Source: Alphaproteobacteria bacterium
GTDB taxonomy: Bacteria; Pseudomonadota; Alphaproteobacteria; UBA828
Assembly (NCBI GenBank): GCA_965237415.1
Contig: CBDEFM010000002.1
Coordinates: 640,001-704,000, forward strand
Reading direction: 5' to 3'
DNA: 64,000 bases
Shown here: positions 46,420 to 62,963 of the stretch, piece by piece
Layout of the letters: every line of letters begins with the position of its first letter
Numbering within the stretch: position 1 is the stretch's first letter
Made by a program: the position numbers and the translations under genes
The notes under the pieces: model-generated
Databases searched by the model: none
What the model saw: only the letters and a program-made list of their open reading frames with translations
Told to the model about the DNA's origin: nothing

Positions 46420-49389
46420 GTGTCGCTTCTGTCTTTCCTGCAAGACGATAAGATTTGTCCCGAGCCGGCCTCGGGCGAGCGCGCGCGCGCTGGGCGAGAC
46501 GCCTGGCTGGCGGCGGCGGTTGCACTCGGCGGCGCGGAAGAGTCGTTCGCCAGCGCGCTCGTGGGCGACCGACGCGCCTGCGGCTTCCTCGACGGCATAT
46601 TCGGCAACGCCCCCGCTCTCGGTCGAGCACTGACGCGCGAGCCGGCCCAGCTTCGCGTGGTGGCCGAGCGTGGCCCCGACGACGCGTTCGAGCGCGAGCT
46701 CGACGGGATATCGAGCACGGCCTGCCGCGCCAGTGACCGTCGTGCCCTCACCCAACGGCTCCGGGCGGCCAAGCGGCGGGCATTGCTCACCGTCGCGCTT
46801 GCCGACATCGCCGGCGCCTGGCCGCTGGATAAGGTGGCGGAGTCCCTCACCAGGTTTGCCGATGCCGCAATTGCCGGAGCGCTCGATCATCTGCTTCGGG
46901 ATGCAGCCACGCGGGTCACCCTTGCTCGGGCCGACCGCGATCGGCCCGTATCTGCCTGCGGGTTGACAGTACTCGGTGTCGGCGGGCTCGGCGCTGGCGA
47001 GCTTACCTATTCGAGCGCGCTCAGTCTGTTCGTGCTGTTCGACCCTGAGCGGGCGCAACACCGGGGGCGGGGCGAGCCCACGGAAACCTTGCACCGCCTC
47101 GTTCGCGACCTCGTCTCCCTGCTTGGGGACGGGACCGGCGAGAGCTGCGTGTATCAGACCGATCTGAAATTCAGGCCCAACATGGGCGGGACACCGCTCG
47201 CGCTCTCCACCGCGGCTGCGGAACAGTACTACGAGAGTCACGGGCAGAATTGGGAACGCGCCGCAATGATCAAGGCCCGCCCGGTCGCCGGCGATGCGAC
47301 GGTCGGCGCCGACATGATGGAGCGGCTGCGGCCCTTCATCTGGCGCAAGTATCTCGATTTTGCGGCCATCCAGGATATCCAGTCGATCAAGCGGCAGATC
47401 GCCGCCGAGCCCGGTAGCAGCCGGATCGAAATCGCCGGCCACGACATCGAGCGGGGCCGTGGCGGTATTCGCCAGATCGAACTGTACGCGCAAACGCAGC
47501 AGTTGATCTGGGGCGGCCGGGATGCGTCATTGCGCTCGGGTGTGACCTGCGACGCCCTCCGCGCGCTCGCCGCCGCCGGGCTCACGAACGAAAAGGCGGT
47601 GGATGAGCTGATCGAATCGTACCGCTTCCTCCGCAGGCTCGAGCACCGTCTGGAGATGGTCGACGACCAACCTTCTCTGAAAGTCCCCGACGACGCGGAC
47701 GACCGCACTGCAATCGCCCACCTCATGGGCTTCCGCGACGAGGCCGATTTCGCCGAGGCGCTCCGCGCACACGTGCGATCCGTCGAGGAGCACTACGCCG
47801 CCCTCTTCGAGGATGAGCCGGCGCTCGGCGGCGAGGGCGGCAATCTGGTGTTTACCGGTACCGCCGATGATCCCGACACACTGGCCAGCCTCCTGCGGAT
47901 GGGGTTCGGCGATGCCGCCGCCGTCTCGGCGACGGTGCGCCACTGGCACCATGGCCGAATCATGGCGACCCGCAGCACCCGCGCCAGGGAGCTCCTGACC
48001 GAACTGATGCCGGCGCTCCTTCGCGCGCTGACCAGCACCGCCGACCCCGACTCGGCGTTCCGCAAGCTCAATGAGTTTCTCGGCGGATTGCCCTCCGGTG
48101 TTCAGCCCTTCCTGCTGCTTCACGACAATCCCGGACTTCTCGCCCGGCTGGCCGAGATTCTGGGCAGCGCGCCCCGCATCGCCGAGCATCTGAGCCGCAA
48201 CCCCGATCTACTCGAAGGGCTCATCAGCGGTGATCTTCACCAGCGCCTGCCGAATCGGGACGAGCTCGACGATGACCTTCACCGAGCCCTCGCGCCTGCT
48301 GACGAATTTCAAGCCATCCTCGACGGGGTGAGGCGTTGGCAGCACGTGCGCGAGTTCCAGGTCGGCATGCAGATCCTCCGGGGCGATGTGGCCGCCGACC
48401 AATTGTCCGGCGCTCTGTCGGACATCGCCGATTCGGTGATCGCGGCGTTGCTGCCCCGGATGCAACGGGAATTCGCGAGACGGCACGGCACGGTGCCGGG
48501 CGCGACCTTCGCGGTCCTCGGCTTGGGCAAGCTCGGCAGCCGCGAGATGACCTTCGACAGCGACCTCGATGTGGTCTTCGTCTATGGCGCCCAGGGCGGG
48601 GTGGATGTGCAGTCCGACGGTGCCCAGGGACTTGCGGCGAGCCACTTCTACGCACGCTTCAGCCAACGCCTGACGAATGCCCTCAGCGCGCACACCGCCG
48701 AGGGTCGGCTCTACGAGATCGATACCAGGCTGCGCCCCTCCGGCAGCTCGGGGCCGATTGCCACCGAAGCCGCCGCCTTCCGCCGCTACCACGAAGAGAA
48801 CGCTTGGACCTGGGAGCACATGGCGCTGACACGCGCCAGGCCGGTGGCCGGCGACCGTGAGCTCAGCGCGACGGTGATGGACGGGATTCGGGCGGTCCTC
48901 TGCGCGCCGCGCGATACCGATACGCTGCTCGCCGACGTCGCCTCGATGCGCGAACGGGTCGACAACGAACGCCGGACCGAGAACAGGTGGCGCCTCAAGC
49001 ATGTGCGGGGCGGCGTTCTCGATCTCGAGTTCATCGCCCAGTACCACCTGCTGCGCCACGCCGCGCGGCACCCGTCGATTCTCGTTCAGTCGACGCAGTC
49101 GGTCTATCGGCGGCTGGGAGAAGCCGGCATTCTCGATGCCGACGACGCGGGCGAGCTCGCCGACACGGCTGCCTTTCTCCAACGTCTCCAGGGCCTGCTC
49201 AGGCTCACCGTCGGCACCAACCGGGACGTGGACCGCTTCACGGCGGGTGTGCGGGAGACACTGGCGCGGGCGATGGGAGTCGAAGACTTCGCCGCCCTTG
49301 AGACCAGGGTCCATGCCGTCCAGGATCGCATCCGCGCCGCCTATCATCGCCTTATCGCGGCGCCTGCCGCAAAGCTTAACAGAGAGTGA
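46420..49389 (+). CDS. glnE: Bifunctional glutamine synthetase adenylyltransferase/removase (N-terminal domain degenerate)
   Basis: YYESHGQNWERAAMIKARP, PFIWRKYLDF, GLGKLGSREM...SDLD, LYEIDTRLRPSG, AWTWEHMAL; followed by bcp. Confidence 0.93.
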   Translation: MSLLSFLQDDKICPEPASGERARAGRDAWLAAAVALGGAEESFASALVGDRRACGFLDGIFGNAPALGRALTREPAQLRVVAERGPDDAFERELDGISSTACRASDRRALTQRLRAAKRRALLTVALADIAGAWPLDKVAESLTRFADAAIAGALDHLLRDAATRVTLARADRDRPVSACGLTVLGVGGLGAGELTYSSALSLFVLFDPERAQHRGRGEPTETLHRLVRDLVSLLGDGTGESCVYQTDLKFRPNMGGTPLALSTAAAEQYYESHGQNWERAAMIKARPVAGDATVGADMMERLRPFIWRKYLDFAAIQDIQSIKRQIAAEPGSSRIEIAGHDIERGRGGIRQIELYAQTQQLIWGGRDASLRSGVTCDALRALAAAGLTNEKAVDELIESYRFLRRLEHRLEMVDDQPSLKVPDDADDRTAIAHLMGFRDEADFAEALRAHVRSVEEHYAALFEDEPALGGEGGNLVFTGTADDPDTLASLLRMGFGDAAAVSATVRHWHHGRIMATRSTRARELLTELMPALLRALTSTADPDSAFRKLNEFLGGLPSGVQPFLLLHDNPGLLARLAEILGSAPRIAEHLSRNPDLLEGLISGDLHQRLPNRDELDDDLHRALAPADEFQAILDGVRRWQHVREFQVGMQILRGDVAADQLSGALSDIADSVIAALLPRMQREFARRHGTVPGATFAVLGLGKLGSREMTFDSDLDVVFVYGAQGGVDVQSDGAQGLAASHFYARFSQRLTNALSAHTAEGRLYEIDTRLRPSGSSGPIATEAAAFRRYHEENAWTWEHMALTRARPVAGDRELSATVMDGIRAVLCAPRDTDTLLADVASMRERVDNERRTENRWRLKHVRGGVLDLEFIAQYHLLRHAARHPSILVQSTQSVYRRLGEAGILDADDAGELADTAAFLQRLQGLLRLTVGTNRDVDRFTAGVRETLARAMGVEDFAALETRVHAVQDRIRAAYHRLIAAPAAKLNRE

Positions 49390-49402
49390 GGGGAGACCCA
49401 GT

Positions 49403-49887
49403 ATGACGACGGTATCGACGCCGGCAGCCCGGCGCCGGGGTTCACGGCGCCCACCAACGACGGCGGCTCGCTGAACCTCGACCGCCTGCGCGGCAAGGCG
49501 GTGGTGCTCTATTTCTACCCGCGCGACGACACCCCCGGCTGCACGCGGGAAGCGCAGGAGTTCACCGAAGCTCTGGCCGAGTTCGCGAGGGCCGGTGCGG
49601 AGATCGTCGGCGTCTCCAAGGACTCCGCCGCCAAGCACGACAAGTTCCGTGCGAAGTACGGCCTCCCCTTCACCCTCGTCTCGGATGCCGAGGGCGACAT
49701 CTGCGAGCGTTACGGCGTCTGGGTCGAGAAGAAGAACTACGGCAAGACCTACATGGGCATCGAGCGTTCGACCTTTTTGATCGACGCGGACGGGAGCGTC
49801 AGCAAGGTCTGGCGCAAGGTGAAGGTCGCGGGCCATGTCGATGCGGTGTTAGGGGCGGTAAAGGACTTGAATGCCGGTGATGGCTGA
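49403..49887 (+). pseudogene. bcp: Peroxiredoxin Bcp with an apparent 1-nt frameshift just after the start codon
   Basis: Frame from 49411: GIDAGSPAPGFT...GKAVVLYFYPRDDTPGCTREA...GIERSTFLID; the RBS-preceded ATG at 49403 is in another frame. Confidence 0.75.
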
Positions 49888-49900
49888 CCGTCAGCGTTAG

Positions 49901-50182
49901 CGGTACCGTCGAACACGAAAGGAAACCCCTGCCGTATCTGAAGCAATCAAGAGCAAGTGGGCCACCATCGGCACCGTTGCATGCGGCTATAGCGCGATCG
50001 GCCTCGTGTCGGCGGGGTTCTGGAACTCCATCGGGCTCGTCGCCGTCAGCCTCTTCAACGCCATGGGTCTGGTCTGCATCGCCCCCGGCAACGCCATGGG
50101 GATCGTCGCATTGGCCGGCGGCACCGCCACAGGCGTCATCGCTGTCGCCGGCGGCAGCAGCCGAAGCGCGATACCGATCTAG
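49901..50182 (+). CDS. Putative small Gly/Ala-rich hydrophobic repeat peptide (start unclear)
   Basis: Open frame ...KWATIGTVACGYSAIGLVSAGFWNSIGLVAVSLFNAMGLVCIAPGNAMGIVALAGGTATGVIAVAGG...; typical GC3 codons; stop TAG at 50180-50182. Confidence 0.4.
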   Translation, partial: RYRRTRKETPAVSEAIKSKWATIGTVACGYSAIGLVSAGFWNSIGLVAVSLFNAMGLVCIAPGNAMGIVALAGGTATGVIAVAGGSSRSAIPI

Positions 50183-50330
50183 TCACCTGACACTGAAGTT
50201 GAGATCATTTTCAATTGGCAGTGTCGTCACACTAAGTCGCTCTATTGTCGAAGAATGTGGTCGTGCAATATAGTTGTCTTTATGTGGCGAACTTCAGATT
50301 CAGGTGACTAGCCCGGTCACTCCCCCACGC

Positions 50331-50426
50331 CGTCATGCCCGGACTTGTTCCGGGCATCTCCCTCCGCCGGGCCCAGTCGGTCGCTGAGCGAGTGCGTGGA
50401 TGGCCGGAACGAGTCCGGCCATGACG
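50331..50426. repeat. Alphaproteobacterial REP-like palindromic element
   Basis: CGTCATGCCCGGACTTGTTCCGGGCATC ... GATGGCCGGAACGAGTCCGGCCATGACG; two self-palindromic arms in inverted orientation. Confidence 0.8.
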
Positions 50427-50461
50427 CGGCGGGGGTACCCCGCGACGTCGGATGCGCCGAG

Positions 50462-50704
50462 TCAGCCCCCCTTGAAAGGGCGAAAAAGGCTGATCGTGTC
50501 GTCGGTCGAGAGCGGCGATTCGGGCCACTGATCGCGGGGGACGGCCTCGCCGTTCACCATGGCGAGCAGGGCGGGGTCGCCGTCCACGCCGAGCCCGGAG
50601 AGCGCGTCCGCGACGTTGGTTCCCGCCTCCAGATCGAGGCTGCGGCTCTTTGCGCTACCGAATTGGGGGAGCTCGATTGCGATGAGCTCCACCGTCACCT
50701 TCAT
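50462..50704 (-). CDS. MoaD/ThiS sulfur carrier protein
   Basis: 80 aa ubiquitin-like fold, MVNG, ends in KGG; ATG overlaps the AOR stop. Confidence 0.88.
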   Translation of the reverse strand: MKVTVELIAIELPQFGSAKSRSLDLEAGTNVADALSGLGVDGDPALLAMVNGEAVPRDQWPESPLSTDDTISLFRPFKGG

Positions 50705-52530
50705 GCGAGGCCGAGCCGCTGCCTTGTCTCCGCCGTCGGCCGTCCGTCCGTCGTCCAGCCGCGCAGCGCGTAATACTGCGGCAGCATCGTGTCGAGCTCG
50801 CAGACCTTGCCCTTGCCCGAGCCGCTCTTCGCCGCCTCCTTGAGGATGCGCTGAGGCAGCGTGTCGTCGGCGGCGGTCATGCCGGCGTCGAGGTTGAACT
50901 GGCGCTCCATGTTCCAGATGCGCTCGCCGGTCTCGTTCAGCCGGTCCACGGTCCAGCTGCCCTCGCAGGCGGCATCGACCAGGTTGGCGACTTCGTCGAG
51001 ACCCCAGATCATCATCGGGAAGGCGCAGATGCCGACGGAATCGATGGCCGCGTTCGAATCCTGGCTGTCCTTCACGATCTTGGCCTTGCCGTCAAGCTTG
51101 CCGCCGGAGAAGTCGTCCTCATAAGGGTCGGCGCGCAGGTGGCAGGCGCCCCGGTTGCTGGTGGCGTAGGCGAGGCCCATCCCCTGCATCGAGCGGCCGT
51201 CGTAGCCGGGGAACTCCTGCCCCTTGGCGACCATGGCGAACTCGGGGCGGCCGTACTTCTCGCAGAGCCGCTTGGCGCCGAGCCCGAGATCCTTGCCGAA
51301 GCCTGTGCCCGTGCCGGCCTCCTCCGCCGCCCTGCAGAGCGCCTCGGCCGAGCCGAAGGTGTAGGCGATGCCGCCGGTCTCGGCGTCGCTAATGGCGCCG
51401 GTCTCGTAGAGCTCCATCGCGGCTGCAACGGTGGCCCCGAAGGAGATCGGGTCCATCCCGTCCTCGTTGCAGACGAAGTTGGCGAAGGTCGCGGCCTCGA
51501 TGTCGTCGACGCCCACCATGGGGCCGAGGGAGTAGGCCGATTCGTATTCCAGCCCGCCGCTGACCTTCTTGTAGCGATCCCGATCGCGGATCGCGAAATG
51601 CGAGGGGTCCATCTTGGAGGCGCGCTGGCAGCCGATGGTGCAGGCGAAACAGGCGCGGTTCGCGACCAGATTGGCGGCGCCGTCGGAGCGGCGCACCTTC
51701 ATCATCGCGTCGGGACCGAGATTGCCGGTACCCTCGAACTGCACGTCCTGGTTGTTGCGGGTCGGCAGGCTGCCGAAGGCCTGGGTGACGTCGATCATCG
51801 AGAGCGTGCCGGTGCGCGCGAGGTCGGCGCGGGTCTGGCTCTCGGAGAGCGCGGCGGCGGCGTGCTCTACGGCCTCGGCGAAGGCGTCAGTGTCGTCCAC
51901 CGCGACGCCCCGCGTGCCGCGCACGGCAATCGCCTTGAGGTTCTTGGACCCCATCACGGCGCCGACGCCGGAGCGCCCGGCGGCCCGGTCGAGGTCGTTC
52001 ATCACGCAGGCGTAGCGGTTGAGGGTCTCGCCGGCCCGGCCGATCGAGGCGATCTTGATCGCGCCGTCCTGATGGCGCGCCTTGATCATCGGCTCGGTAT
52101 CCCAGACCGACTTGCCCCAGACGAAGCCCTCCGCGTCGATGAGCTCGGCGTGGTCGTCCTTGATGTAGAGGTAGACGGGGCGCGGCGAGCGGCCTTCGCA
52201 GATCACCATGTCCCAGCCCGCGAGCTTCAACTCGGCGCCGAAGTAGCCGCCCGAGTTCGAGCAGGCGACGGCGTTGGTCAGCGCTCCCTTGGTGACGACC
52301 GTGTAGCGGCCTCCGGTCGGCGCCGTGGTCCCGGTCAGCGGGCCGGTCGCGAAGATCAGCTTGTTCTCGGGCGAGAGCGGATCCGCCTTCGGGTCCATCT
52401 CCTCCGCCAGGTACTTGGTGGCAAGGCCCCTGCTGCCCAGATAGGTCTGCGCCCACTCCATGTTGAGCGCCTCTTCCGTGCAGGTGCCGGCGGTGAGGTC
52501 AGCCCGTAACAGTCTGCCTTGCCAAGCCAT
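50701..52530 (-). CDS. aor: Aldehyde:ferredoxin oxidoreductase (W/Mo-pterin AOR family)
   Basis: YLGSRGLA, GPLTGT, SNSGG, RAAGRSGVGAVMGSKNLKA, CFACTIGC, EYE, GMDPIS, KGQE.PGYD.R, RGACH, YY.LRGW. Confidence 0.92.
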   Translation of the reverse strand: MAWQGRLLRADLTAGTCTEEALNMEWAQTYLGSRGLATKYLAEEMDPKADPLSPENKLIFATGPLTGTTAPTGGRYTVVTKGALTNAVACSNSGGYFGAELKLAGWDMVICEGRSPRPVYLYIKDDHAELIDAEGFVWGKSVWDTEPMIKARHQDGAIKIASIGRAGETLNRYACVMNDLDRAAGRSGVGAVMGSKNLKAIAVRGTRGVAVDDTDAFAEAVEHAAAALSESQTRADLARTGTLSMIDVTQAFGSLPTRNNQDVQFEGTGNLGPDAMMKVRRSDGAANLVANRACFACTIGCQRASKMDPSHFAIRDRDRYKKVSGGLEYESAYSLGPMVGVDDIEAATFANFVCNEDGMDPISFGATVAAAMELYETGAISDAETGGIAYTFGSAEALCRAAEEAGTGTGFGKDLGLGAKRLCEKYGRPEFAMVAKGQEFPGYDGRSMQGMGLAYATSNRGACHLRADPYEDDFSGGKLDGKAKIVKDSQDSNAAIDSVGICAFPMMIWGLDEVANLVDAACEGSWTVDRLNETGERIWNMERQFNLDAGMTAADDTLPQRILKEAAKSGSGKGKVCELDTMLPQYYALRGWTTDGRPTAETRQRLGLA

Positions 52531-52648
52531 AACGTCCTCCGCGCTGTCGATCGGCCGAGCCGGGCCGCGTGATGGGAAACGTACTCTTGGATTCGCCGTT
52601 CGCCAAGGGGTGGGCAGGCTTGAGAGCCCGGAGAGGCGGTAGCGGGGA

Positions 52649-53935
52649 TTACGCAGCCGGGCGGTGGACGGGCACCACGTAGGGGCCTTCGGGGATCACG
52701 GCAACCCGTCGGTCGCCATGCCGGGCAGTGCTTTCCGCCACCGATCCTGCGAGCGACTCGGTCATGCGGACTCCGGTGAGCGCCCGGTCCTCGGGCGCGA
52801 GACCCTCGGTGAAGAGATGGACCGTCCCGGCCCGCATGGGGCGGAGTTGCATCTCGGTCTGCCATTCGTCGATCGCGGCGTGGGTCTTGCCGTTGATCTC
52901 GTCGAGGAAATGCTCTGGTCCATTCTCCACCAGGCGGCGCTGGGCATCGGCGTAGTGAGCCGAGCCCAGACCTTCGGAGCATGCCGACGCAACGATGAGA
53001 TCGCCGCCCGGCACCAGAATTTCCAGCGGGCCGACCATGCCCTTGACGGTCTGATAGTAGGTCGCATCCAGCGGATGGCCCGCGGCGCTGGTCAGCACGG
53101 TCTTGAACCGTTCGCCCACGGGAACGGTGGCGAACCCCTCGGCGAAGCGGACCGCCTCCTCGTGGCTCGCCACGACCTCGCCGTAGTTGAGGAAGGCGAC
53201 GCGGCGCTCGTCGTCGATGACGCTGTTGACGGCGCGGGCTCCGCCGATCATCGCCATAATCTCCAGCTGCTCCTCGTGCAGCGGATTTCCCTCCAGCACG
53301 CAGTTGGTGCAGTTGGGATGCTCCATGAAGCGGGCGCTGTGGAAGGTGGTGACGGTCTCGGCATGGGCGACGCCGGGCGCGATCACCTTGCGCCCGCCCG
53401 ACCAGCCGGCCATGAAGTGCGGCTCCACCAGGCCAGTGGCGATGCGCAGATCGGCTTCGACGAAGCGCCGGTCGAGCCGTACCACCGTGCCCCGCCGGGT
53501 CGTTCCGATCAGCACGTGGTCTGCGTCCTCCCGGGCAAAATGGTTCGCGACGTCCACCGTCTCCAGCACCCAGGGATCGCCGACCAGAGCGGCAAGCTCT
53601 TCGCCCTCGTTGGGCCGGTGCAGCCCGGTCGCGATCAGCACCGTGATCTGCTCAGGCGCCAGCCCGGCGCCGAGCAGAGTGCGGATGAGCGGCGGCAGGA
53701 TCACGCCGTTGGGCACCGGGCGCGTGAAGTCGCAGATAAGGATGCAGACGCGCTTGGCACGCGCGGCCTCCTCCGCAAGCAGCGGGCAAGCCACGGGCCG
53801 GGCGAGAGCCTCTTCCATGGCCTGCGCCGGATCGGCGAGCAGCGGCATCGCCTTCTTGGCAATCACGGTGACGTCGAGCTCGTCGGGCAGATCGACCGCC
53901 CGCAGGCCCCGGCCGTAGTTCAGATGAACGCGCAT
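52649..53935 (-). CDS. larA: Nickel-pincer (NPN) dependent lactate racemase family protein
   Basis: D.TRP.P, IATGLHRP, EPHFMAG.SGGRK...PG, H..D..YYQTVKG, C.EG.G, DEWQ, PEGPY. Confidence 0.88.
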   Translation of the reverse strand: MRVHLNYGRGLRAVDLPDELDVTVIAKKAMPLLADPAQAMEEALARPVACPLLAEEAARAKRVCILICDFTRPVPNGVILPPLIRTLLGAGLAPEQITVLIATGLHRPNEGEELAALVGDPWVLETVDVANHFAREDADHVLIGTTRRGTVVRLDRRFVEADLRIATGLVEPHFMAGWSGGRKVIAPGVAHAETVTTFHSARFMEHPNCTNCVLEGNPLHEEQLEIMAMIGGARAVNSVIDDERRVAFLNYGEVVASHEEAVRFAEGFATVPVGERFKTVLTSAAGHPLDATYYQTVKGMVGPLEILVPGGDLIVASACSEGLGSAHYADAQRRLVENGPEHFLDEINGKTHAAIDEWQTEMQLRPMRAGTVHLFTEGLAPEDRALTGVRMTESLAGSVAESTARHGDRRVAVIPEGPYVVPVHRPAA

Positions 53936-53984
53936 GCGATCGGCCTAAGGCGCAAGAGATGCAACGGCAGTCTTCATCGTCACC

Positions 53985-56504
53985 TCACCGCGTCCCGGCG
54001 AGGGGAATTCCGGTTGCGTGCGCAGTTGCAATAGTCAGCGCGCGGAGGTCTTCGGGCTCGACGTTCTGAAGGTTTGTCTTGCCGGTGCAGCGCGCCATCA
54101 TCGACGCCTCGGACGCGGTCGCCTTGATGATGTTGACGGTGCCTGTCGTGCGGTCCTCGTCGCTGCGGTCTGCCGAGAACGCGAGCTCGTGGGCGCCGGT
54201 GATGGCACCGCCTGCAGCAAGCCCCACGGCGACACCCAGCACCACCGCGACCGTGCCGAGCGCGATCACCTTGGCCGCATCGGTGCCCGAGCGTACGCCG
54301 CCGAAGTAGACGAGGTCGATCTCCTCCTCGCGGTTGAGACGGCGCAGGATCGCCACCGCATCCCGCAGGATCGTGAGATCGGGCGCACCCCTGAGCTCCG
54401 CCCAGGGTGCGCCGAGCCCGGCGCTGCCGTCCAGCAGCAGCATGCCGAAGCCCGCATCGAGCGTATGGGGGATCGCCTCTTCCAGAACCTCTGGCGAGGA
54501 GACCGAAAGCCCCAGCACCTGGCCTTCGGCCGCGGCGGTCGCGTCGACGGGCGTGAAGCGGTGGCCGAGAGCGTAGATCAGCCCCGCCGCGTCCGCGCTC
54601 GGCGCGATCTGCCCCGGCAGCACGAGCTGGAACCAGCGCGCGCCTTCACCCACGGGCTGCACCCCGAGATAGCTCGCATCCGCCTCCGCGATGCCGCGCC
54701 CGACCGCAGCCCGCACCTCCGCCGGCGCGTCGTCGAAGCCCGTCACCATGAAGGGCAGCGCGAGATCGGTGCCGCCCACCGTGGTGCCGATCCGGCAGGC
54801 CTCGCGGTAGGGATCGATCACAAGGCGCGAGAGGTTCGCGGGCAGGAAGGCGAGATCGTCCAGAACGCCGGGGAGCTCTTCCGGGAAGGGGTCGTCCCGC
54901 TCGCCCATGCGCTTCTCCAGCATCGCCTTCTGACCCGCCGTATCGCCCGGCGTGGTGCGGGCCATCACGAAGATGTCCTCACGGTGCCCCACTGCATAGT
55001 CGGCGGAGCCGGTCTCGGCATCGCAGCGGTAGCACCGTGCCGCCTCCTTGCGCGCGGACTCCCAGCCGTAGGTGGTCTCGATCTCGGGGAACGTCACAGG
55101 GTCCTTGCCGAGGCCGAGGAAATCGGGGTGCTGAACCGGCAGAAGCTCCCACTCCAGGTCCTGCGCCACCGGCACCCGCTGCGTGCGGTAAGGTGTCTTG
55201 TAAGGCAGCGGGTCGGCGCGGCCCTCCAGATACGCCTTCACGTAGTAGGCAACCCGCTGGCCGTGGTTCATCGCCATCACGATGGTCGACCCGCCGAAGG
55301 CCCCGTCGCCCGCCGCGAACACCATGGGATCGTTCGTGCGCATGCCTTCCCACGCGGTCCGCACTCGGTCCGTCTGCATCAATCCCCGCCGGTGGAGGTC
55401 GTCGCAGAGACCCTCCTGCCCCACCGAGGCGATCACCATGCCGCACGCGATGTCGTGCTCCGTGCCCGGCACGTTCACCGGCGCGCGCCGGCCGGACTCG
55501 TCCGGGTCTCCCAGCGTGGTCTCAACGCAGCGCACGGCGAGCCCGTTGCCCTGCGGCACGATGGCGGTCTGCTGGGTGTGATAGATGAACTCGATCCCCT
55601 CCTCGATCGCGCCCTCGAGCTCGATCTTGCGCGCCGGGATCTCCGCCGGGCCCCGCCGGTAGATCACCTTGACGTGCTTGCAGCCCGGCAGGCGCCTCGC
55701 GACCCGGCAGGCGTCCATCGCCACGTCGCCGCCGCCGATCACCACAACCGTCTCCGGCATCTCGGGCCGGGCGCCCTCGTTCACGTCGCGCAGGAACTGC
55801 ACGCCGTCGATCACACTGGTGCGGTCCTCGCCCGGAATGCCCATCTTCTTGCCCCACCACGCACCGATGGCGAGGACTACCGCGTCGTGCCGCTCCTTGA
55901 GATCGTCCAGCGTCACGTCCCGCCCGAGCGCGGTGTCGAGGTGAACCTCCATCCCGGGGCAGCGGCGAGCCATGCGGTCGATATCCTCCTGGATGATCCC
56001 GGGCGGCAGCCGAAACGCAGGAATGCCCCAGATCATCATGCCGCCCAAGCGGTCGGTCATCTCGTAGACGTGCACCTTGTAGCCCGCGACCGAGAGGTCT
56101 TGCGCCGCCGTCAGGCCCGCAGGGCCCGAGCCCACCACCGCAACGCTCTGCTCATGGCGCACCGGCACCGGCGGCGGGTCGTAGTCGTGACCCACCTCGT
56201 CCATGACGAAGCGCTTCAGGTTGCGGATCTGCACAGGGCCGTCGGAATCCGTCCGCCGGCACGCCGGCTCGCACGGCGCATCGCACACCCGCCCGCAGAT
56301 CGAACTGAATGGATTGGTCGCCGTGATCGCCTCGAACGCCTCCTCGAAGCGCCGCTCCCAGATATAGGCGATATAGGACGGCGCATCCGTCCCCACCGGG
56401 CAGGCGATCTGGCAGGGCGCCGGCACGAAGTGCGCGTCGTCCGTGTCGTCCGGCAGCTCCGCGAGCAGCTGACCGCCCGCCTCCATCTCCTCCAATATCG
56501 CCAT
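53985..56504 (-). CDS. GltD-like FAD/FeS NAD(P)H oxidoreductase fused to a degenerate glutamate-synthase FMN barrel
   Basis: PCQIACP, CGRVCDAPCE..C, GSGPAG, GIPAFRL, IGGGDVAMD, YRRG, RCYRC; then LDDLAFLPANL...GGVRSGTDAAK.IALG. Confidence 0.85.
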   Translation of the reverse strand: MAILEEMEAGGQLLAELPDDTDDAHFVPAPCQIACPVGTDAPSYIAYIWERRFEEAFEAITATNPFSSICGRVCDAPCEPACRRTDSDGPVQIRNLKRFVMDEVGHDYDPPPVPVRHEQSVAVVGSGPAGLTAAQDLSVAGYKVHVYEMTDRLGGMMIWGIPAFRLPPGIIQEDIDRMARRCPGMEVHLDTALGRDVTLDDLKERHDAVVLAIGAWWGKKMGIPGEDRTSVIDGVQFLRDVNEGARPEMPETVVVIGGGDVAMDACRVARRLPGCKHVKVIYRRGPAEIPARKIELEGAIEEGIEFIYHTQQTAIVPQGNGLAVRCVETTLGDPDESGRRAPVNVPGTEHDIACGMVIASVGQEGLCDDLHRRGLMQTDRVRTAWEGMRTNDPMVFAAGDGAFGGSTIVMAMNHGQRVAYYVKAYLEGRADPLPYKTPYRTQRVPVAQDLEWELLPVQHPDFLGLGKDPVTFPEIETTYGWESARKEAARCYRCDAETGSADYAVGHREDIFVMARTTPGDTAGQKAMLEKRMGERDDPFPEELPGVLDDLAFLPANLSRLVIDPYREACRIGTTVGGTDLALPFMVTGFDDAPAEVRAAVGRGIAEADASYLGVQPVGEGARWFQLVLPGQIAPSADAAGLIYALGHRFTPVDATAAAEGQVLGLSVSSPEVLEEAIPHTLDAGFGMLLLDGSAGLGAPWAELRGAPDLTILRDAVAILRRLNREEEIDLVYFGGVRSGTDAAKVIALGTVAVVLGVAVGLAAGGAITGAHELAFSADRSDEDRTTGTVNIIKATASEASMMARCTGKTNLQNVEPEDLRALTIATAHATGIPLAGTR

Positions 56505-56507
56505 CGC

Positions 56508-58466
56508 TCAGCCCATCCTGCTGAGGAGCGCCTGCTCGCGCTCGCGGTATTCCGGCGCATAGGGCAGGCCCGTCATCTCCGCCGCGTCCCGGGTCACCGC
56601 AACCAGGTCGTTCCGGTTCAGCCCGGTCGTGCTCCCATAACCCAGCGCCTGGGTCAGTGCCGCGATCTGCCAGCGCACGCCTTCCAGGTAGCGGTGGATG
56701 TTGCGGGCCTCCGCCACCGGGTTGTAGCGGCGCTCGTGCTCGGGGTCCTGGGTCGCGATCCCCGTCACGCACTGCCCCACGTGGCATTGCATGCAGGCGA
56801 TGCAGCCGCCGGCGATGATCACCGCCGTTCCCATCGCCACCGCATCGGCGCCGAGGCAGAGCCCCTTCACCGCGTCGATCCCGTCCCGGATGCCGCCCAT
56901 GAGCACGAGCTGCATCTTGCCGAGGCCGTCGACCTCCCCCAGCGCCTCGATCGCCTGGGTGATGGCGGCAAGCGTGGGCACCCCCACGTGCTCCATCACC
57001 TCCGCACCGCCCGCACCCGTCGAGCCCTGCATCCCGTCGAGCTCAACGAAGTCGAAGCCGTCCTTGTAGGCGATCTTGATATCGTCGCGCACCCGGCCCG
57101 CGCCGAGCTTCACGCTCACCGGGATGCGGTAGCCTGTCGCCTCCCGGAACTCCTCCACCTTGATGACCAGATCGTCGGCGCCGAGGATGTCCGGGTGGCG
57201 GGAGGGCGAGCGCAGGTCGATGCCCTCCGGGATCCCCCGGATGGTGGCAAGCTCCTTAGTCACCTTCTTCGCCATGAGCTGGCCGCCGAAGCCCGGCTTC
57301 GCCCCCTGGCTGATATAGATTTCGAGCCCGTCCGCCCGGTTCATGTCGTGGATGTTCCAGCCGAGCCGGCCGCCCAGACACTGGAAGACAAGCTGCTCCG
57401 CCGCACCCCGCTGGGCGTCGCTCATGCCGCCTTCGCCGGTATTCTCGGCGATCCCCGCCATGCTCGACGCCATGCCCACCGCCTGCTTGGTCGAGCGCGA
57501 GAGCGCGCCGTAGCTCATCGGCGCGACCATCACCGGCATGGAGAGCTTGAGCGCCTTCGCTCCGTTCAGACCCCCGATCTCGGTCCGCATTTCCACCGCC
57601 GTCACCGGGTCGCCTGCCGTGCCCGCGCCCGAGAGGTCGCGCTTGAAGGCGAGGTCCGAGAGGTGCGGCAACGTGCGCGCGCCGCCATAGCCCCGCACCC
57701 GGTAGCGGCCGATCTGGGCCTTGACGTAGACGTCCTCCTGCACTTTCGGGTTCCAGTAATCCGACGCGCCCGAGAAGGTGAAGAAGGGAATGCTGCGCAC
57801 CTGCTGCTCGCTGGTCGCGTAGCGCAGACGCTTTCCGGCGTTCACGATCTTCTGGAAGCCGCCCTTGTAGGCGATCTCGTGACGGTCCAGGAACGCGCGG
57901 ATGTCGTCGACCTCGGCCTCCTCGATATCGGTCAGCTGCGCGTCGGAGCCGAGAGAGCGCACCGCGCCGCCGACATAAATGTCACCGGCCGCCATATCCT
58001 CGCCCACACGCTCGCCGGATTCGCCCAGGATGATGATGCGCCCGCCGTACATCATGTAACCGGCCATGAAGTTGGCGTTGCCGACGCAGCAGAGCGTCCC
58101 CGCCTTCATCACCTGGCCCGCACGCGAGCCCACGTTGCCGTGCACCACGATCTCCACGCCACGGATCGCAACGCCCGCGATCGCGCCCGCGTTGCCGCGC
58201 ACCGTCACCGTTCCGGCGTACATGTTGTCGCCGAGACCCCAGCCGGCATTGTTGTCGATCTCGAAGCGTGCCTTGTCCGCAAGTCCTGCGCAGAAGTAGC
58301 CCGCAGAGCCCCGGACATGCACCCGCACCGGGTGGATCAGTCCGACGCCGATATGATGGCGCGCGTCGGGGTTGAGGACCTCGATGTCCTCTCCCTTCGC
58401 TCCCCAGTCGCGGATTTGCTCGTTGGCGTGGCGGACGGAAACCTGTCCTAGGTCAATCTGGACCAT
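56508..58466 (-). CDS. Glutamate synthase-related protein: GXGXG domain fused to FMN/[3Fe-4S] domain (MgsB+MgsC-like)
   Basis: N-terminal NPDARH.IGVG plus GXGXG repeats; C-terminal MSYGALS, NTGEGG, SQGAKPG.GG, RSPSRHPD, DGMQGSTG, GCIACMQCHVGQC.TGIATQDP. Confidence 0.88.
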   Translation of the reverse strand: MVQIDLGQVSVRHANEQIRDWGAKGEDIEVLNPDARHHIGVGLIHPVRVHVRGSAGYFCAGLADKARFEIDNNAGWGLGDNMYAGTVTVRGNAGAIAGVAIRGVEIVVHGNVGSRAGQVMKAGTLCCVGNANFMAGYMMYGGRIIILGESGERVGEDMAAGDIYVGGAVRSLGSDAQLTDIEEAEVDDIRAFLDRHEIAYKGGFQKIVNAGKRLRYATSEQQVRSIPFFTFSGASDYWNPKVQEDVYVKAQIGRYRVRGYGGARTLPHLSDLAFKRDLSGAGTAGDPVTAVEMRTEIGGLNGAKALKLSMPVMVAPMSYGALSRSTKQAVGMASSMAGIAENTGEGGMSDAQRGAAEQLVFQCLGGRLGWNIHDMNRADGLEIYISQGAKPGFGGQLMAKKVTKELATIRGIPEGIDLRSPSRHPDILGADDLVIKVEEFREATGYRIPVSVKLGAGRVRDDIKIAYKDGFDFVELDGMQGSTGAGGAEVMEHVGVPTLAAITQAIEALGEVDGLGKMQLVLMGGIRDGIDAVKGLCLGADAVAMGTAVIIAGGCIACMQCHVGQCVTGIATQDPEHERRYNPVAEARNIHRYLEGVRWQIAALTQALGYGSTTGLNRNDLVAVTRDAAEMTGLPYAPEYREREQALLSRMG

Positions 58467-59389
58467 GTGCCATAGCTCCCCGGCGGCGGTTCCCTCGTGT
58501 CAAGCGCGCGGCCCGGGAAGAGGCGGTTCAGCGAAACCTCCTCCGAGGCGATCGCGATCAGGTCGTCGTTCTCGTACATGATCATCGGCTTCGCCGCGAG
58601 ATTGTCCTTGGCGTAGCCGATCTCATCCTTGGTCGAGACCAGGAACGAGAACGTGCCGTCGAGATCGTCGATCGAGGTCTTCAGCGCATCCTCGAGAAGA
58701 ATCGCGTTGGCGAGCTTGTCTGCCAGATAGACCGCGATCAGCTCGCTGTCGTTGTCTGTATGGAACCCGAACCCGCGCCGCTCCAGCCGCCGGCGCATCT
58801 TCCAGTAGTTCGTAATCTGGCCGTTGTGCACGATCGCGATGTCGGTGAACCCCGTTGCCCAGAAGGGATGCGCCGCCTCGGGCTTCACCTCGGACTCGGT
58901 CGCAAGCCGCACATGGCCGAGCCCGTGGGTGCCCTGAACCTCGCGCACGTGGAAGATCTCGTCCACATCGTGGGCGCTGCCCACGTCCTTGCGGATATCC
59001 AGGCTCTCCCCGATCGAGATCAGCGTCGCCGCGTGCTCCATGTCGTAGGTCAGCTTCTGCACGTCGCCGGCGAAGCGCACAACGACCCGGTAGCTGTTGC
59101 CCACATGTTCGCCGTCCACGATCTCCGCACCGTGCTCCTCAAGGGTGCTGCGAATATCCGCGATCGCGCCCTCGACGCCACTGTTATGGCCGACGCCATC
59201 GCCCGCGCCGTTCCCCTCCCCCACCAGGAAGCGCAGCCGGAGCTGGCCCGGCTCGGCGTCCTCATAGAGCGCGAACCCGGTCGAATCAGGGCCCCGGTGC
59301 TGGCAGCCGTCCAGCATGTCGATCAGCGCCTGACCCGCCGACAGACCCGTGTCACCGTGCTTGAACATCACGCCCGCTATCCCGCACAT
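58448..59389 (-). CDS. Class II (Ntn) glutamine amidotransferase (GlxB/MgsA-like)
   Basis: MCGIAG, HRGPDSTG, GHVRLATES, AHPF, VHNGQITNY, TDNDSE, LDG.F. Confidence 0.9.
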   Translation of the reverse strand: MCGIAGVMFKHGDTGLSAGQALIDMLDGCQHRGPDSTGFALYEDAEPGQLRLRFLVGEGNGAGDGVGHNSGVEGAIADIRSTLEEHGAEIVDGEHVGNSYRVVVRFAGDVQKLTYDMEHAATLISIGESLDIRKDVGSAHDVDEIFHVREVQGTHGLGHVRLATESEVKPEAAHPFWATGFTDIAIVHNGQITNYWKMRRRLERRGFGFHTDNDSELIAVYLADKLANAILLEDALKTSIDDLDGTFSFLVSTKDEIGYAKDNLAAKPMIMYENDDLIAIASEEVSLNRLFPGRALDTREPPPGSYGTWSRLT

Positions 59390-59496
59390 GCGCGTCGTCC
59401 CGTTCTGTCGTCCCGAAAGTGCCCGATCATACCATGAATCAAGGACTCGCAAGCCGAACCTCCGCTATCATGCCCCCAGCCTGAGGAAGATCAGCC

Positions 59497-60396
59497 ATGC
59501 CCCACGCGCAGGCGCCGGACGGGATCAAGCTCTACTACGAGGAGGCCGGGACCGGCCATCCAATGCTCTTCATCCACGAATTCGCTGGCGATCTCCTGAG
59601 TTGGGAGCCGCAGCTCTGCCACTTCGCGCGGCGCTACCGCTGCATCGCCTACAACGCCCGCGGCTATCCCCCCTCGGACGTGCCGGAGGACGCCGACGCC
59701 TACAGCCAGGCCCATGCGGTGGCGGATGCGATCGCCGTCCTCGACCACTTGGGCGTCGAGCGCGCCCATGTGGTGGGCTTGAGCATGGGCGGCTTCGCGA
59801 CCATCCATATCGGCCTGAAACACCCGGACCGCGCCTCGGCACTGGTGGTCGCCGGCTGCGGCTACGGCGCGCCGAAGGATGCCCGCACCGGGTTCCAGCG
59901 CGAGACCCATGCGGTGGCCGACCGCCTGGAGCGCGAGGGAGCAGGCCCGGTGGGTGCCGACTACGCGCTCGGGCCCACGCGGGTGCAGTTCCAGACCAAG
60001 GACCCGCGCGGCTGGGCGACCTTCCGCGACCGCGTGGCGGATCATTCGGCGAAGGGCACGGCCAACACGCTGCGCGGCGTGCAGGCCCGCCGCCCCTCGC
60101 TCTACGATCTGGAGGACGGCCTCGCCGCGCTCACCGTGCCGACGCTGCTGATCACCGGGGACGAAGACGAGCCCTGCCTCGACGCGAACCTCTACCTCAA
60201 GCGCACGATGCCCACGGCCGGCCTGTTGGTGATCCCGAAGTCGGGCCACACCATCAACTTGGAGGAGCCGGACGCCTTCAACCAGGCCTGCGCGGATTTC
60301 TTCGCCCAGGTCGAGAACGGCCGTTGGGAGGCGCGCGATCCGCGCTCGCTCAGCGCCACGTCGATCATCCGGGCCGACGCGGACGAGCGGTCATGA
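59497..60396 (+). CDS. Alpha/beta fold hydrolase
   Basis: FIHEFAGD..SWEPQ, YNARGYPPSDVP, GLSMGG nucleophile elbow, GDED, GHTINLEEP. Confidence 0.9.
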   Translation: MPHAQAPDGIKLYYEEAGTGHPMLFIHEFAGDLLSWEPQLCHFARRYRCIAYNARGYPPSDVPEDADAYSQAHAVADAIAVLDHLGVERAHVVGLSMGGFATIHIGLKHPDRASALVVAGCGYGAPKDARTGFQRETHAVADRLEREGAGPVGADYALGPTRVQFQTKDPRGWATFRDRVADHSAKGTANTLRGVQARRPSLYDLEDGLAALTVPTLLITGDEDEPCLDANLYLKRTMPTAGLLVIPKSGHTINLEEPDAFNQACADFFAQVENGRWEARDPRSLSATSIIRADADERS

Positions 60397-61559
60397 CAGG
60401 CGAGGAACGCGCACTCGCCCAGGCGCTTCACAGCCTCCTCGCCGAGCTGATCGCGATCCCCTCCGCCACTCCGCCGGGCGACACCAGAGCGATCTGCGAA
60501 GCCGCCGGCGAGCATCTCAAGGCGGCCGGCTATGAGGTCTCCATGCCGACGCGGACCCCGCCGTTCGCTAACCTGGTCGCGCGGCTCGGCGAGGGCTCGC
60601 CCTGCGTGGTGTTCAACGCCCACATCGACACGGTCGGCACCGGCGACCGTGCTGCCTGGCGCACCGACCCCTTCGCCGCAACGATGGAGAAGGGCCGCAT
60701 CTACGGCCTCGGCGCCAACAACTGCAAGGGATCGGCAGCGGTGCATCTCTGGCTCGCGGGCGAAGTCGCGCGCCTGGGCGGGCCTGCGCGGGGGAGCCTG
60801 ATCTTCGTGCTCGCCGGCGACGAGGAACGCCTCGGCCCGGAGGGAACCGCCTTCCTGCGCGAGGAAGGGATCATCGAGCCCGATGCGCTGGTGCTCGGCG
60901 CGCCCACCGAGAACCAGATCATCATCGAGGAACGCGGCGTCCTCTGGCTCGAGATCGAAACCACCGGCCGCGCCGCTCACGGCGGCGATCCACCGGCAGG
61001 CGACAATGCCATCCTCCGCATGGTGCGCCTGCTGGAGAGCCTGCGCACCGAACTGGGGCCGGCACTCGCCACGCGGCGACGGGGCGAAAAGGTCTCGACC
61101 ATGAATTTCGGCACCATCCACGGCGGCGAGAACCCCAACGTGGTCCCCGACCGCTGCACGGCCCGCATCGACCGCCGCTTGCTGCCCGACGAACCGGTCG
61201 AGGAAGCCCAGGCCGAGATGGAGGCTGTGCTGGCCGCCTCGGGCGAGCCTGCGGGGTCCTACTCCGTTCGCCGTCTTGCAGGCACCGACGGCTTCTCCGC
61301 GCCCCTCGACGGTCCCTATGTCTCGGCTCTGACGGCGGCCATCGAGGAGCGTCTGGGAAGGCCGCCAGAGGTGCTCAACGCGCTCGCCGTGAGCGACGGG
61401 CGCTTCTTCGCCCGCGACGGCATCGAGATCGTCAATTTCGGCCCCGGCGACGGCGCCGTGAGCCACGCCGCCAACGAGCACGTGCCGCTCGTCGAGATGG
61501 TGGACGCGGCACTGATCCTCCGCGCCTTCGTGGAGCGTACCCTCGGCTTCGCCGGGTGA
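60393..61559 (+). CDS. M20 (ArgE/DapE-like) metallohydrolase with atypical metal ligands
   Basis: FNAHIDTV, W..DPF, GLGANNCKG, GDEE, GRAAHG, NVVPD, SDGRF, FGPG..SH..NE; ATG overlaps the upstream stop (ATGA). Confidence 0.88.
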   Translation: MTGEERALAQALHSLLAELIAIPSATPPGDTRAICEAAGEHLKAAGYEVSMPTRTPPFANLVARLGEGSPCVVFNAHIDTVGTGDRAAWRTDPFAATMEKGRIYGLGANNCKGSAAVHLWLAGEVARLGGPARGSLIFVLAGDEERLGPEGTAFLREEGIIEPDALVLGAPTENQIIIEERGVLWLEIETTGRAAHGGDPPAGDNAILRMVRLLESLRTELGPALATRRRGEKVSTMNFGTIHGGENPNVVPDRCTARIDRRLLPDEPVEEAQAEMEAVLAASGEPAGSYSVRRLAGTDGFSAPLDGPYVSALTAAIEERLGRPPEVLNALAVSDGRFFARDGIEIVNFGPGDGAVSHAANEHVPLVEMVDAALILRAFVERTLGFAG

Positions 61560-61658
61560 GACCTCGGCGGCGCGCCGTTGCGCCGGCGGCAGCCTGCGCC
61601 TAACCTTTCGCGGCGCGCGGCGGGCGCGCTCGACGAACAGCGAGAGAGGCTTGGATCC

Positions 61659-62906: not shown

Positions 62907-62963
62907 GCGTTCGGCAAGCCGCAGCGAAGCGAGAGCGACAACGCGCTTCACGACGGGCGCGCC

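Follow-up and report, generated by a model that had tools for sequence, protein, structure and literature searches.

Organization of the locus

We analysed a stretch of 64,000 nucleotides (the window) from an Alphaproteobacteria bacterium of the UBA828 lineage (GenBank assembly GCA_965237415.1, contig CBDEFM010000002.1, positions 640,001–704,000), and in it a cluster of six contiguous minus-strand genes. An initial annotation, made from the sequence alone, had described these genes as a re-shuffled glutamate synthase-like system standing together with a LarA-type racemase, an aldehyde:ferredoxin oxidoreductase (AOR) and a MoaD-like protein. The open reading frame (ORF) listing of the window confirmed this layout at 50462–59452, with all six ORFs in the same orientation, and the domains named in the annotation were all recovered with Pfam (Table 1). 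The first three genes of the cluster, referred to here as the trio, encode subunits A, B, and C. The genes for A and B share 19 nt, and a gap of 3 nt separates B from C. From C to LarA and from LarA to AOR the gaps measure 49 and 118 nt, and AOR shares 4 nt with the gene for the sulfur carrier (ThiS-like). The G+C content at third codon positions is 0.85–0.92 for all six ORFs, the G+C content of the window being about 0.67. The ORF of subunit A spans 58448–59452, and its likely start is the ATG at 59389, which gives the N-terminus MCGI.

Table 1. The six-gene cluster and its divergent neighbours (positions are those of the window; aa, amino acid residues)
Feature	Position	Strand	Basis
Subunit A, GlxB-like class-II (N-terminal nucleophile, Ntn) glutamine amidotransferase, 313 aa	58448–59389	-	Pfam GATase_6/7
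Subunit B, GXGXG beta-helix fused to GlxD-type flavin mononucleotide (FMN)/[3Fe-4S] barrel, 652 aa	56508–58466	-	Pfam GXGXG 49.4 bits, Glu_synthase 297.8 bits
Subunit C (839 aa, ORF 53985–56504), N-terminal half, predicted GltD/NfnB-type reductase	55188–56504	-	Pfam Fer4_20, Pyr_redox_2
Subunit C, C-terminal part, linker and predicted second FMN-type TIM barrel (X barrel), no cluster cysteines	53985–55187	-	
LarA homologue (nickel-pincer 2-hydroxyacid racemase family), 428 aa	52649–53935	-	Pfam Lar_N, LarA_C
AOR, tungsten-type, catalytic subunit only, 609 aa	50701–52530	-	Pfam AFOR_N, AFOR_C
MoaD/ThiS-type sulfur carrier, 80 aa, C-terminal GG	50462–50704	-	Pfam ThiS 38.8 bits
Divergent neighbours: alpha/beta hydrolase, M20 peptidase, Peripla_BP_6 (branched-chain-type ABC) binding protein, permease	59497–63833	+	Pfam

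Subunits A and B

Subunit A is 37% identical to GlxB of Rhizobium etli over the full length and, with its MCGI start, has the Cys1 nucleophile of the Ntn amidotransferases. Of 53 orthologous ORFs, 48 have MCG[IV] and 51 have HNGxIxN.

For subunit B, the mean column identity over 31 orthologues was 82%. Solved GltB chains match it over the FMN region only, with 128 bits at best. C555, C561, and C566 align to the cysteines of the GltB [3Fe-4S] cluster, and four cysteines, the cluster cysteines included, are invariant in 31/31 orthologues. The same is true for Q387, K390, Q396, and R410, which align to the QGAKPGxGGQ...R segment of GltB, and for the motif RSPSRHPD. We take the residues aligned with these four to be 2-oxoglutarate binders in the glutamate synthase structures. 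Literature searches on the roles of the GltB residues yielded no paper.

As the initial annotation had noted, subunit B reads PGFGGQ and RSPSRHPD where the solved GltB chains read PGEGGQ and SPPPHHD. The position of the GltB Glu is occupied by F in 22 and by L in nine of the 31 trio orthologues. Paralogues from the same genome (described below) have L, in the GlxD-like protein of contig C1, or T, in a Rieske fusion; the former protein reads RSPARHPD. The two motifs had been taken as pointers to a different substrate. This proposal was rejected, because GlxD-type proteins also have RSPxRHPD and, at the position of the Glu, a hydrophobic residue, and F or L stands at this position across the trio orthologues. 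Hence, the motifs mark the GlxD branch and not a special substrate.

Relationship to Glx/Mgs enzymes and to paralogues in the same genome

The FMN domain of the window protein is 44–45% identical to R. etli GlxD and to the protein of the N-methylglutamate (NMG) cluster of Aminobacter, and 29–30% identical to GltB. Plasmid records supplied the reference sequences. On pRetIE4803a of R. etli, glxA, a gene for an XRE regulator, glxB, glxC, glxD, and glnT lie beside soxBDA, and p2 of Aminobacter niigataensis carries the same glx set with soxBDAG. A maximum likelihood tree of the FMN domain, of the kind that the initial annotation had proposed, was built with GltB and GlxD rows (31 rows in all, with long branches between the groups). 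In this tree the trio proteins were monophyletic (100/100) and joined the GlxD-type rows (92/92), apart from GltB and from two other paralogue types, which places the trio on the GlxD/MgsC branch. Pfam and the tree thus bore out the description of an Mgs-type order in which the last two parts are fused and a GltD-like reductase is attached.

The genome of the window has four separate loci of the Glu_synthase family: a canonical GltB/GltD, a set on contig C1, the Rieske fusion, and the trio. The canonical GltB, of 1513 aa, adjoins a canonical GltD. On contig C1 (98450–103144), a glutamine synthetase (GS)-like gene is followed by separate GATase, GXGXG, and FMN genes. Because gltB and gltD lie elsewhere in the genome, the trio is not the housekeeping glutamate synthase (GOGAT); nor is it the standard NMG synthase set, the classical GS-like/glxBCD set being separate on contig C1. 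Both distinctions agree with the initial annotation.

It may be noted that the GS-like protein of contig C1 scored 325 bits with TIGR03105, below the cut-off of 469.6, and that this set is flanked by a DAO-family gene on one side and by amidase and gamma-glutamyltranspeptidase genes on the other. The Rieske–Glu_synthase fusion (536 aa; contig C2, 2668277–2672055) is a non-canonical member of the Glu_synthase family. Its gene adjoins that of a Rieske/ferric-reductase membrane protein, and some 1.3 kb upstream, on the opposite strand, there is a cytochrome P450 gene.

Subunit C and the X barrel

A sequence search of the PDB matched the N-terminal half of subunit C to GltD (2vdc_G/6s6s_G) and NfnB (4ylf_B). 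Judged by sequence, this half is a reductase of the GltD/NfnB type, with predicted sites for two [4Fe-4S] clusters, flavin adenine dinucleotide (FAD), and NAD(P)H.

The C-terminal 400 residues of subunit C are 29% identical (E 1e-9) to the second half of the FMN barrel of subunit B. With Pfam, this part gave a weak FMN_dh match (21.5 bits; cut-off 24.9), and Glu_synthase was also sub-threshold. An AlphaFold2 (AF2) model, made from an alignment of 40 relatives, was a TIM barrel with a mean predicted local distance difference test score (pLDDT) of 82. The top Foldseek rows were FMN 2-hydroxyacid oxidases/dehydrogenases (E ~1e-10). VIA-align gave Z 22.4 for flavocytochrome b2 and also for type II isopentenyl diphosphate (IPP) isomerase; for residues 819–1189 of Azospirillum brasilense GltB, Z was 20.0 over 273 residues, the most aligned. 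The barrel retains the GGxRxGxD phosphate-binding end and is without the [3Fe-4S] cysteines and the QGAKPG and SPxxHxD loops. The C-terminal part of subunit C is therefore modelled as an FMN-type TIM barrel, and the claim that one protein combines GltD with a second FMN barrel was borne out by Pfam, the identity to subunit B, AF2, and VIA-align.

We also considered whether the X barrel could be the missing central domain of GltB. No Pfam match to Glu_syn_central was found in A, B, or C (E≤1e-3) or in the C-terminal 400 aa of C (E≤10); Pfam gave the weak FMN_dh and Glu_synthase matches only. Because VIA-align superimposes the X barrel on the FMN domain of GltB (819–1189), it was assigned to the FMN-domain kind and the candidate was rejected, while a scaffolding role like that of the central domain is possible.

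Among 1.84 billion proteins (50% clustering), the X-barrel family had 438 representatives at E≤1e-3. Two of these sequences are natural fusions, one of B with C (P0128, 1486 aa) and one of B with the X barrel but without the GltD half (P0138, 1031 aa). When residues 230–652 of subunit B were modelled together with the X barrel, the complex scored 0.80, compared with 0.00 for the best control; 58 of 80 solved complexes and two of 110 mismatched pairs attained this mark. At least 88% of the contacts agreed between runs, and the pLDDT of the partner was at least 88. The modelled interface takes in residues 391–393 of subunit B, F393 being the Phe of PGFGGQ. This model supports binding of the X barrel to subunit B.

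The same genome has, on contig C2 (3048962–3050173; L024:8987–10177), a truncated copy of the GltD-barrel gene, which covers its last ~400 residues at 97% identity. It directly follows two Mutator-family transposase ORFs and looks like a remnant of a duplication mediated by an insertion sequence.

Distribution of the trio and its neighbours

Subunit C was found at full length in 25 of 41 genomes (the window genome and 40 relatives), and three more had a piece of it cut by a contig end. Within the genus, 19 of 21 genomes had subunit C; the two without it were 62% and 67% complete. Among species-representative genomes, 487 stretches encode a relative of the X barrel, and in an evenly drawn sample of the class the X barrel was present in 18 of 401 genomes. 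Neighbours were counted in the best 80 of the 487 loci, some of whose genomes are shared with the set of 41. These 80 all come from metagenome-assembled genomes, labelled mostly as Alpha- or Gammaproteobacteria. Since eight of them end less than 900 nt from C, 72 were evaluable for the downstream gene. The order A-B-C was kept in every related locus having enough upstream sequence.

A glutamine synthetase of 435 aa directly follows the trio in 14 of the 72 loci, and a cut copy was also seen in one more (L080). It matched TIGR03105, ‘type III glutamate--ammonia ligase’, with 674.7 bits (cut-off 469.6) and shares 63% identity with GlnT of R. etli. In one locus (L103), a gene upstream of the trio encodes an XRE-cupin regulator with 63% identity to its counterpart in the glx cluster of R. 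etli, and an Amt-family transporter was present within 15 of the 80 loci. As judged by gene order, the trio in GlnT lineages occupies the exact glxBCD slot of the NMG clusters. The families that recur as neighbours in the 80 loci include none of the sox/mgd-like kind. In the scanned neighbourhood of the window, Pfam detected no gmaS- or mgd-like gene. Hence, the earlier statement that gmaS and mgd are not adjacent holds for the lineage of the window but not elsewhere, a GlnT/GmaS-type synthetase being the next gene in the 14 loci above.

One locus (L124) carries the trio and then a complete classical set of GATase, GXGXG, FMN, and GlnT genes, as well as, upstream and in opposite orientation, a third set that is partial; it was not counted among the 14 because its GlnT belongs to the classical glxBCD set behind the trio. 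A relative within the set of 41 (G018) has two full copies of the trio, one with the LarA/AOR/ThiS tail and one without. In other lineages the neighbours of the trio included DAO, a Rieske oxygenase, nucleoside hydrolase, amidase, and TauD, with no recurrent theme beyond GlnT, Amt, and LarA.

LarA

The best solved relative of the LarA homologue is LarA of Isosphaera pallida (LarA_Ip; 9eid/9eia), matched over the full length with 319 bits. In the alignment to 9eid, TRPVPN, GLHRP, and EPHFMAG...GGRK are conserved, and the Arg and both catalytic His residues are kept. The residues after the second catalytic His are F-M in the window protein, compared with L-M in LarA_Ip. The latter (LarAH2/SAR) is characterized, with the roles of its residues, in PMC11851776 as a racemase with a broad spectrum of aliphatic, short-chain 2-hydroxy acids. 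The window protein stayed below all NCBIfam equivalogs (lactate racemase, 329.7 vs 460; malate racemases, 279 vs 500 and 267 vs 462; LarAH10, 229 vs 540). As larC (314.9 bits), larE (235; cut-off 150), and larB (250.3; cut-off 175) are present elsewhere in the genome, all at about 1.775–1.778 Mb of contig C2, the protein can be matured.

LarA was the first or second co-oriented gene after C in 22 of the 72 evaluable loci (in L054 by tblastn only). Within the genus it followed C in 17 of the 19 trio-bearing genomes, being missing in G015 and G016. Outside the near relatives it followed C in eight loci (L067, L068, L069, L074, L081, L090, L100, L104), and in seven of these an MFS transporter and a GlpD-like FAD dehydrogenase came next, in place of AOR. 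In a tree of 50 subunit B proteins, from which 31 of the 80 loci were omitted (B cut, or ORF length outside 645–660 aa), a single clade (SH-aLRT 93) contained all 19 LarA-labelled rows among its 23; the four others were the second copy of G018 and three loci cut too short for a call. The pattern thus suggests that LarA became linked once and was lost a few times.

The same LarA subfamily (55–79% identity) was present in 22 of the 401 class genomes, 15 without the trio and seven with it. LarA and the trio were adjacent only in the window genome (G000) and in G076, and unlinked in five genomes. In ten loci where LarA is not beside the trio, no MFS, GlpD-like, AOR, or trio homologue was found; the neighbours were larC in four, an AIRC/larB-like gene in one, TRAP transporter parts in two, and Rieske oxygenases in two. 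In one relative (G003, locus L022), the match to LarA and that to B both fall into two frames, and frameshifts or assembly errors are possible.

AOR and the sulfur carrier

The AOR matched 8c0z_A, presumably from Aromatoleum aromaticum, over the full length with 784 bits. Next to the window AOR, neither a polyferredoxin (AorA) nor an FAD subunit (AorC) was found, and only the ThiS-like gene follows. The product of the latter ends in ...FKGG, and TIGR01683 was below its cut-off. A second AOR operon, of the AorABC type, lies on contig C2 (3462743–3466807; L134:5743–9807) and encodes a 4Fe-4S polyferredoxin, an AOR 59% identical to that of the window, a Pyr_redox_2 flavoprotein, and a ThiS-like protein. 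A HigB/HTH toxin-antitoxin pair lies just upstream of this operon.

AOR was present in 12 of the 80 loci, all with a subunit C at least 85% identical to that of the window. In the genus it stood behind the trio in 16 of the 19 trio-bearing genomes and was missing in G002, G015, and G016. Seven genus relatives have two small ORFs (~100–110 aa) on the opposite strand between AOR and the ThiS-like gene (for example, L041:4812–5538, L042:11933–12652, and L043:4138–5052), which are absent from the window.

The search for co-occurrence of the six genes, suggested in the initial annotation, thus gave a divided answer. The order of the trio is kept throughout, while LarA is bound to one clade (22/72 loci, the other 50 being without it) and AOR to near relatives (12/80). 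Linkage to larA was accordingly upheld in part and linkage to aor only among near relatives, and the view of the six genes as one conserved system was abandoned.

Transcription

Of twenty public runs that matched part of the stretch, seven are recorded as RNA. From four metatranscriptome runs, which belong to three studies, contigs with a likeness of at least 92% covered all six genes. The junction A–B was bridged in 4/4 runs, B–C in 3/4, C–LarA in 2/4, LarA–AOR in 4/4, and AOR–ThiS in 1/4; such contigs may include DNA, and a contig over two genes is no proof of a single RNA. The data are compatible with six genes in one transcript, and LarA, AOR, and MoaD may well be transcribed with the trio here. 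A scan of 49800–59700 for promoters and terminators was uninformative, with one plus-strand promoter-like site, equal to the number in shuffled sequence, and no terminator-like site against 2.8 expected.

Surroundings of the cluster

The divergent hydrolase, peptidase, and ABC genes upstream of the trio (Table 1) are kept across the genus and partly in four loci of the LarA clade (L068, L069, L074, L090). At the downstream end the cluster is flanked by genes for GlnE (glutamine synthetase adenylyltransferase) and an AhpC/TSA peroxiredoxin (46420–49887), likewise in genus relatives. The tRNA and Rfam scans of the window gave no matches.

Proposed function of the trio

The best reading of these results is that A, B, and C form one enzyme complex, of the GlxBCD/MgsABC type, that has gained a GltD-type NAD(P)H reductase. 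We consider it rather probable that the trio is a reductase-coupled, NAD(P)H-dependent Glx-type amide-nitrogen transferase/imine reductase, on which LarA and AOR are accretions. In such an enzyme, Cys1 of subunit A would hydrolyse an amide donor, either glutamine or a gamma-glutamyl-alkylamide. The ammonia or amine would reach the FMN site of subunit B and form an imine with a 2-oxo acid, most likely 2-oxoglutarate. By analogy with GOGAT, electrons for reduction of the imine would pass from NAD(P)H through FAD and the two [4Fe-4S] clusters of subunit C to the [3Fe-4S] cluster and FMN of subunit B. The X barrel may dock on B as a scaffold or as a second flavin site, and the product would be glutamate or an N-alkylglutamate. 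LarA would be a 2-hydroxyacid racemase module in its own right that came to be linked with the trio in a single clade of Alphaproteobacteria, and AOR with MoaD a still later, genus-level addition; neither LarA nor AOR would belong to the conserved system.

Several points weigh against this proposal. All NCBIfam GltD and GltB models are below cut-off for the trio proteins, TIGR01317, TIGR01318, and PRK12814 among them on the GltD-type subunit (e.g., 380 vs 916). The Glu of PGEGGQ is F or L in subunit B, and therefore the imine chemistry may differ from that of GOGAT. Flavin binding by the X barrel is putative, and the amide donor, the 2-oxo acid, the product, and the direction of the reaction are those that we infer. 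Neither GlnT nor Amt is adjacent to the trio in the window. Within its clade, LarA is found directly behind C even where the identity of C is 58–72%, and the RNA-library contigs that bridge C–LarA and LarA–AOR fit a functional six-gene operon in the genus.

The initial annotation had seen in all six genes a single undescribed pathway of amine or amino-acid conversion, with LarA and AOR handling its hydroxy/oxo-acid and aldehyde intermediates. Co-orientation and short gaps agree with this, as do the linkage in the genus (LarA 17/19, AOR 16/19), the eight further LarA loci, and the RNA-library contigs, which bridge each of the five junctions in at least one run; moreover, the GlpD-like dehydrogenase after LarA in seven loci could make a 2-oxo acid from the racemised 2-hydroxy acid. 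However, the linkage is lineage-bound: AOR is linked only where C is at least 85% identical, most evaluable loci have no LarA, and in the 15 genomes without the trio and the five where it is unlinked, LarA sits with larC/larB, TRAP transporters, or Rieske oxygenases. The F-M after the second His, near the L-M of the aliphatic-acid enzyme LarA_Ip, is a poor fit to a dicarboxylate such as 2-hydroxyglutarate, and the genome has a separate, complete AorABC-type operon. The proposed role of LarA and AOR is thus not supported, and a single six-gene pathway appears quite unlikely. A further reading, confined to the LarA clade, is very unlikely in our opinion. There, the trio would be the last step in the conversion of racemic aliphatic 2-hydroxy acids into (N-alkyl) amino acids, via LarA, a dehydrogenase, and amination with amide nitrogen and NAD(P)H, and in the genus electrons would pass between the orphan AOR and the Fe-S chain of the GltD-barrel protein. 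If this were true, LarA would equalise the enantiomers, and the 2-oxo acid would come from the GlpD-like enzyme in sister lineages and possibly from the X barrel here. According to another proposal, the X barrel is a catalytic FMN 2-hydroxyacid dehydrogenase, working in a ‘hydrogen borrowing’ amination of 2-hydroxy acids, with LarA supplying the right enantiomer. The top structural matches (Foldseek E 1e-10; VIA-align Z 21–22) are indeed FMN 2-hydroxyacid oxidases/dehydrogenases, and LarA is linked to the trio in one clade. But these Z scores are tied with those for IPP isomerase and the FMN domain of GltB (Z 20–22) and therefore show a common fold only, and the sequence similarity is limited to the phosphate-binding end. 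The motif of the FMN 2-hydroxyacid dehydrogenase family is His-x-x-Arg, and at its place the X barrel has the GltB-like LLLDGSAGLG; most trios, besides, have no LarA. We regard this mechanism as extremely improbable.

Two other explanations concern the trio itself. It could be a second, differently built glutamate synthase (glutamine + 2-oxoglutarate + NAD(P)H giving two glutamate) that assimilates ammonium together with GS and Amt. None of the catalytic modules of NADPH-GOGAT is missing, Q387, K390, Q396, and R410 are invariant and aligned to the GltB segment, and GlnT is directly downstream in 14 loci, with Amt nearby in 15. The FMN domain, however, falls on the GlxD/NMG branch and well away from GltB, another residue stands in place of the GltB Glu, the adjacent GlnT is of the type found in NMG clusters with sox/mgd genes, and gltBD is already in the genome; this explanation is a real possibility, but we doubt it. 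Alternatively, the trio could be a reductive NMG (N-alkylglutamate) synthase that joins the amine of a gamma-glutamyl-alkylamide to 2-oxoglutarate at the expense of NAD(P)H and replaces the redox-neutral MgsABC. Its position in other lineages, in the glxBCD slot between a glx-type regulator and GlnT/GmaS, argues for this, together with its membership of the GlxD branch and the hydrophobic L or F in place of the GltB Glu, as in GlxD. Against it, no sox/mgd-like cluster recurs among the neighbours of the 80 loci, the window has no GlnT, and F393 is modelled at the subunit interface and not obviously in a substrate pocket. We consider this alternative unlikely.

No paper found in literature searches describes a Glx-type enzyme coupled to GltD or a link between LarA and glutamate synthase. 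The main text of PMC11770544 does not mention ‘glutamate synthase’. For SAR11, the relevant portions of PMC3160333 and PMC3870248 cover the classical glxBCD-glnT set only. Table 2 of the latter also lists glnT, gltB2, and amt at SAR11_1305–1310, which could be a trio. The PDB sequence search found no solved structure covering the trio arrangement, and current annotations name its proteins ‘FAD-dependent oxidoreductase’, ‘glutamate synthase’, or similar. The trio arrangement is thus apparently undescribed, and the LarA-AOR-MoaD tail is real but lineage-bound.

Under the reading favoured here, of a reductase-coupled Glx-type enzyme, the trio is a highly constrained and apparently unstudied enzyme, the mean column identity of subunit B being 82% across Alpha- and Gammaproteobacteria. 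It occurs in hundreds of uncultured, largely marine genomes, where genes for a type III glutamine synthetase and an ammonium transporter are frequent neighbours. Through it, ammonium or methylamine nitrogen could enter glutamate by a route so far overlooked, and it is a natural experiment in recombining the modules of glutamate synthase. LarA and AOR show how accessory modules accrete onto it; on present evidence they define no new pathway.

Comparison with known systems

MgsABC/GlxBCD resembles the trio in its gene order (amidotransferase, GXGXG, FMN barrel), in the 44–45% identity and the grouping of the FMN domains, and in RSPxRHPD with a hydrophobic residue at the position of the GltB Glu; in other trio lineages, the flanking XRE-cupin regulator and GlnT are also alike. 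Unlike MgsABC/GlxBCD, the trio has GXGXG and FMN fused and always an added GltD-barrel subunit (839 aa in the window), with an NAD(P)H module, whereas MgsABC is understood as redox-neutral. Moreover, no sox/mgd genes were seen beside the trio, and GlnT is not adjacent in the window.

With GltB/GltD (A. brasilense 2vdc/6s6s; Bacillus subtilis 7mfm), the trio shares the Ntn amidotransferase, the FMN barrel with [3Fe-4S] cysteines, GXGXG, and a GltD-type subunit with two predicted [4Fe-4S] clusters and FAD/NAD(P)H sites. It differs in the order of these parts, which is GATase, GXGXG-FMN, and GltD-barrel over three proteins, FMN preceding GXGXG in GltB. It differs also in having no Glu_syn_central match, an FMN identity of 29–30%, PGF/LGGQ for PGEGGQ, and an extra barrel fused to the reductase.

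Dihydropyrimidine dehydrogenase (DPD; pig 1gt8, and PreT/PreA) likewise combines, within a single chain, an N-terminal GltD-like half with an FMN TIM barrel behind it. Subunit C matched 1gt8 with 101.7 bits over the GltD half and with Z 15.2 over the barrel. Its barrel is, however, of the Glu_synthase and not of the dihydroorotate dehydrogenase type, and a C-terminal ferredoxin domain is absent, so that the likeness is one of layout only.

As for the tail of the cluster, the window AOR shares with AorABC (8c0z) the catalytic AFOR_N and AFOR_C subunit, and a MoaD/ThiS-like gene follows it, but unlike AorABC it has no AorA-like polyferredoxin and no AorC-like flavoprotein. The LarA homologue is like LarA of I. 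pallida over its full length and in the catalytic Arg and His residues, with H-F-M in the former and H-L-M in the latter.

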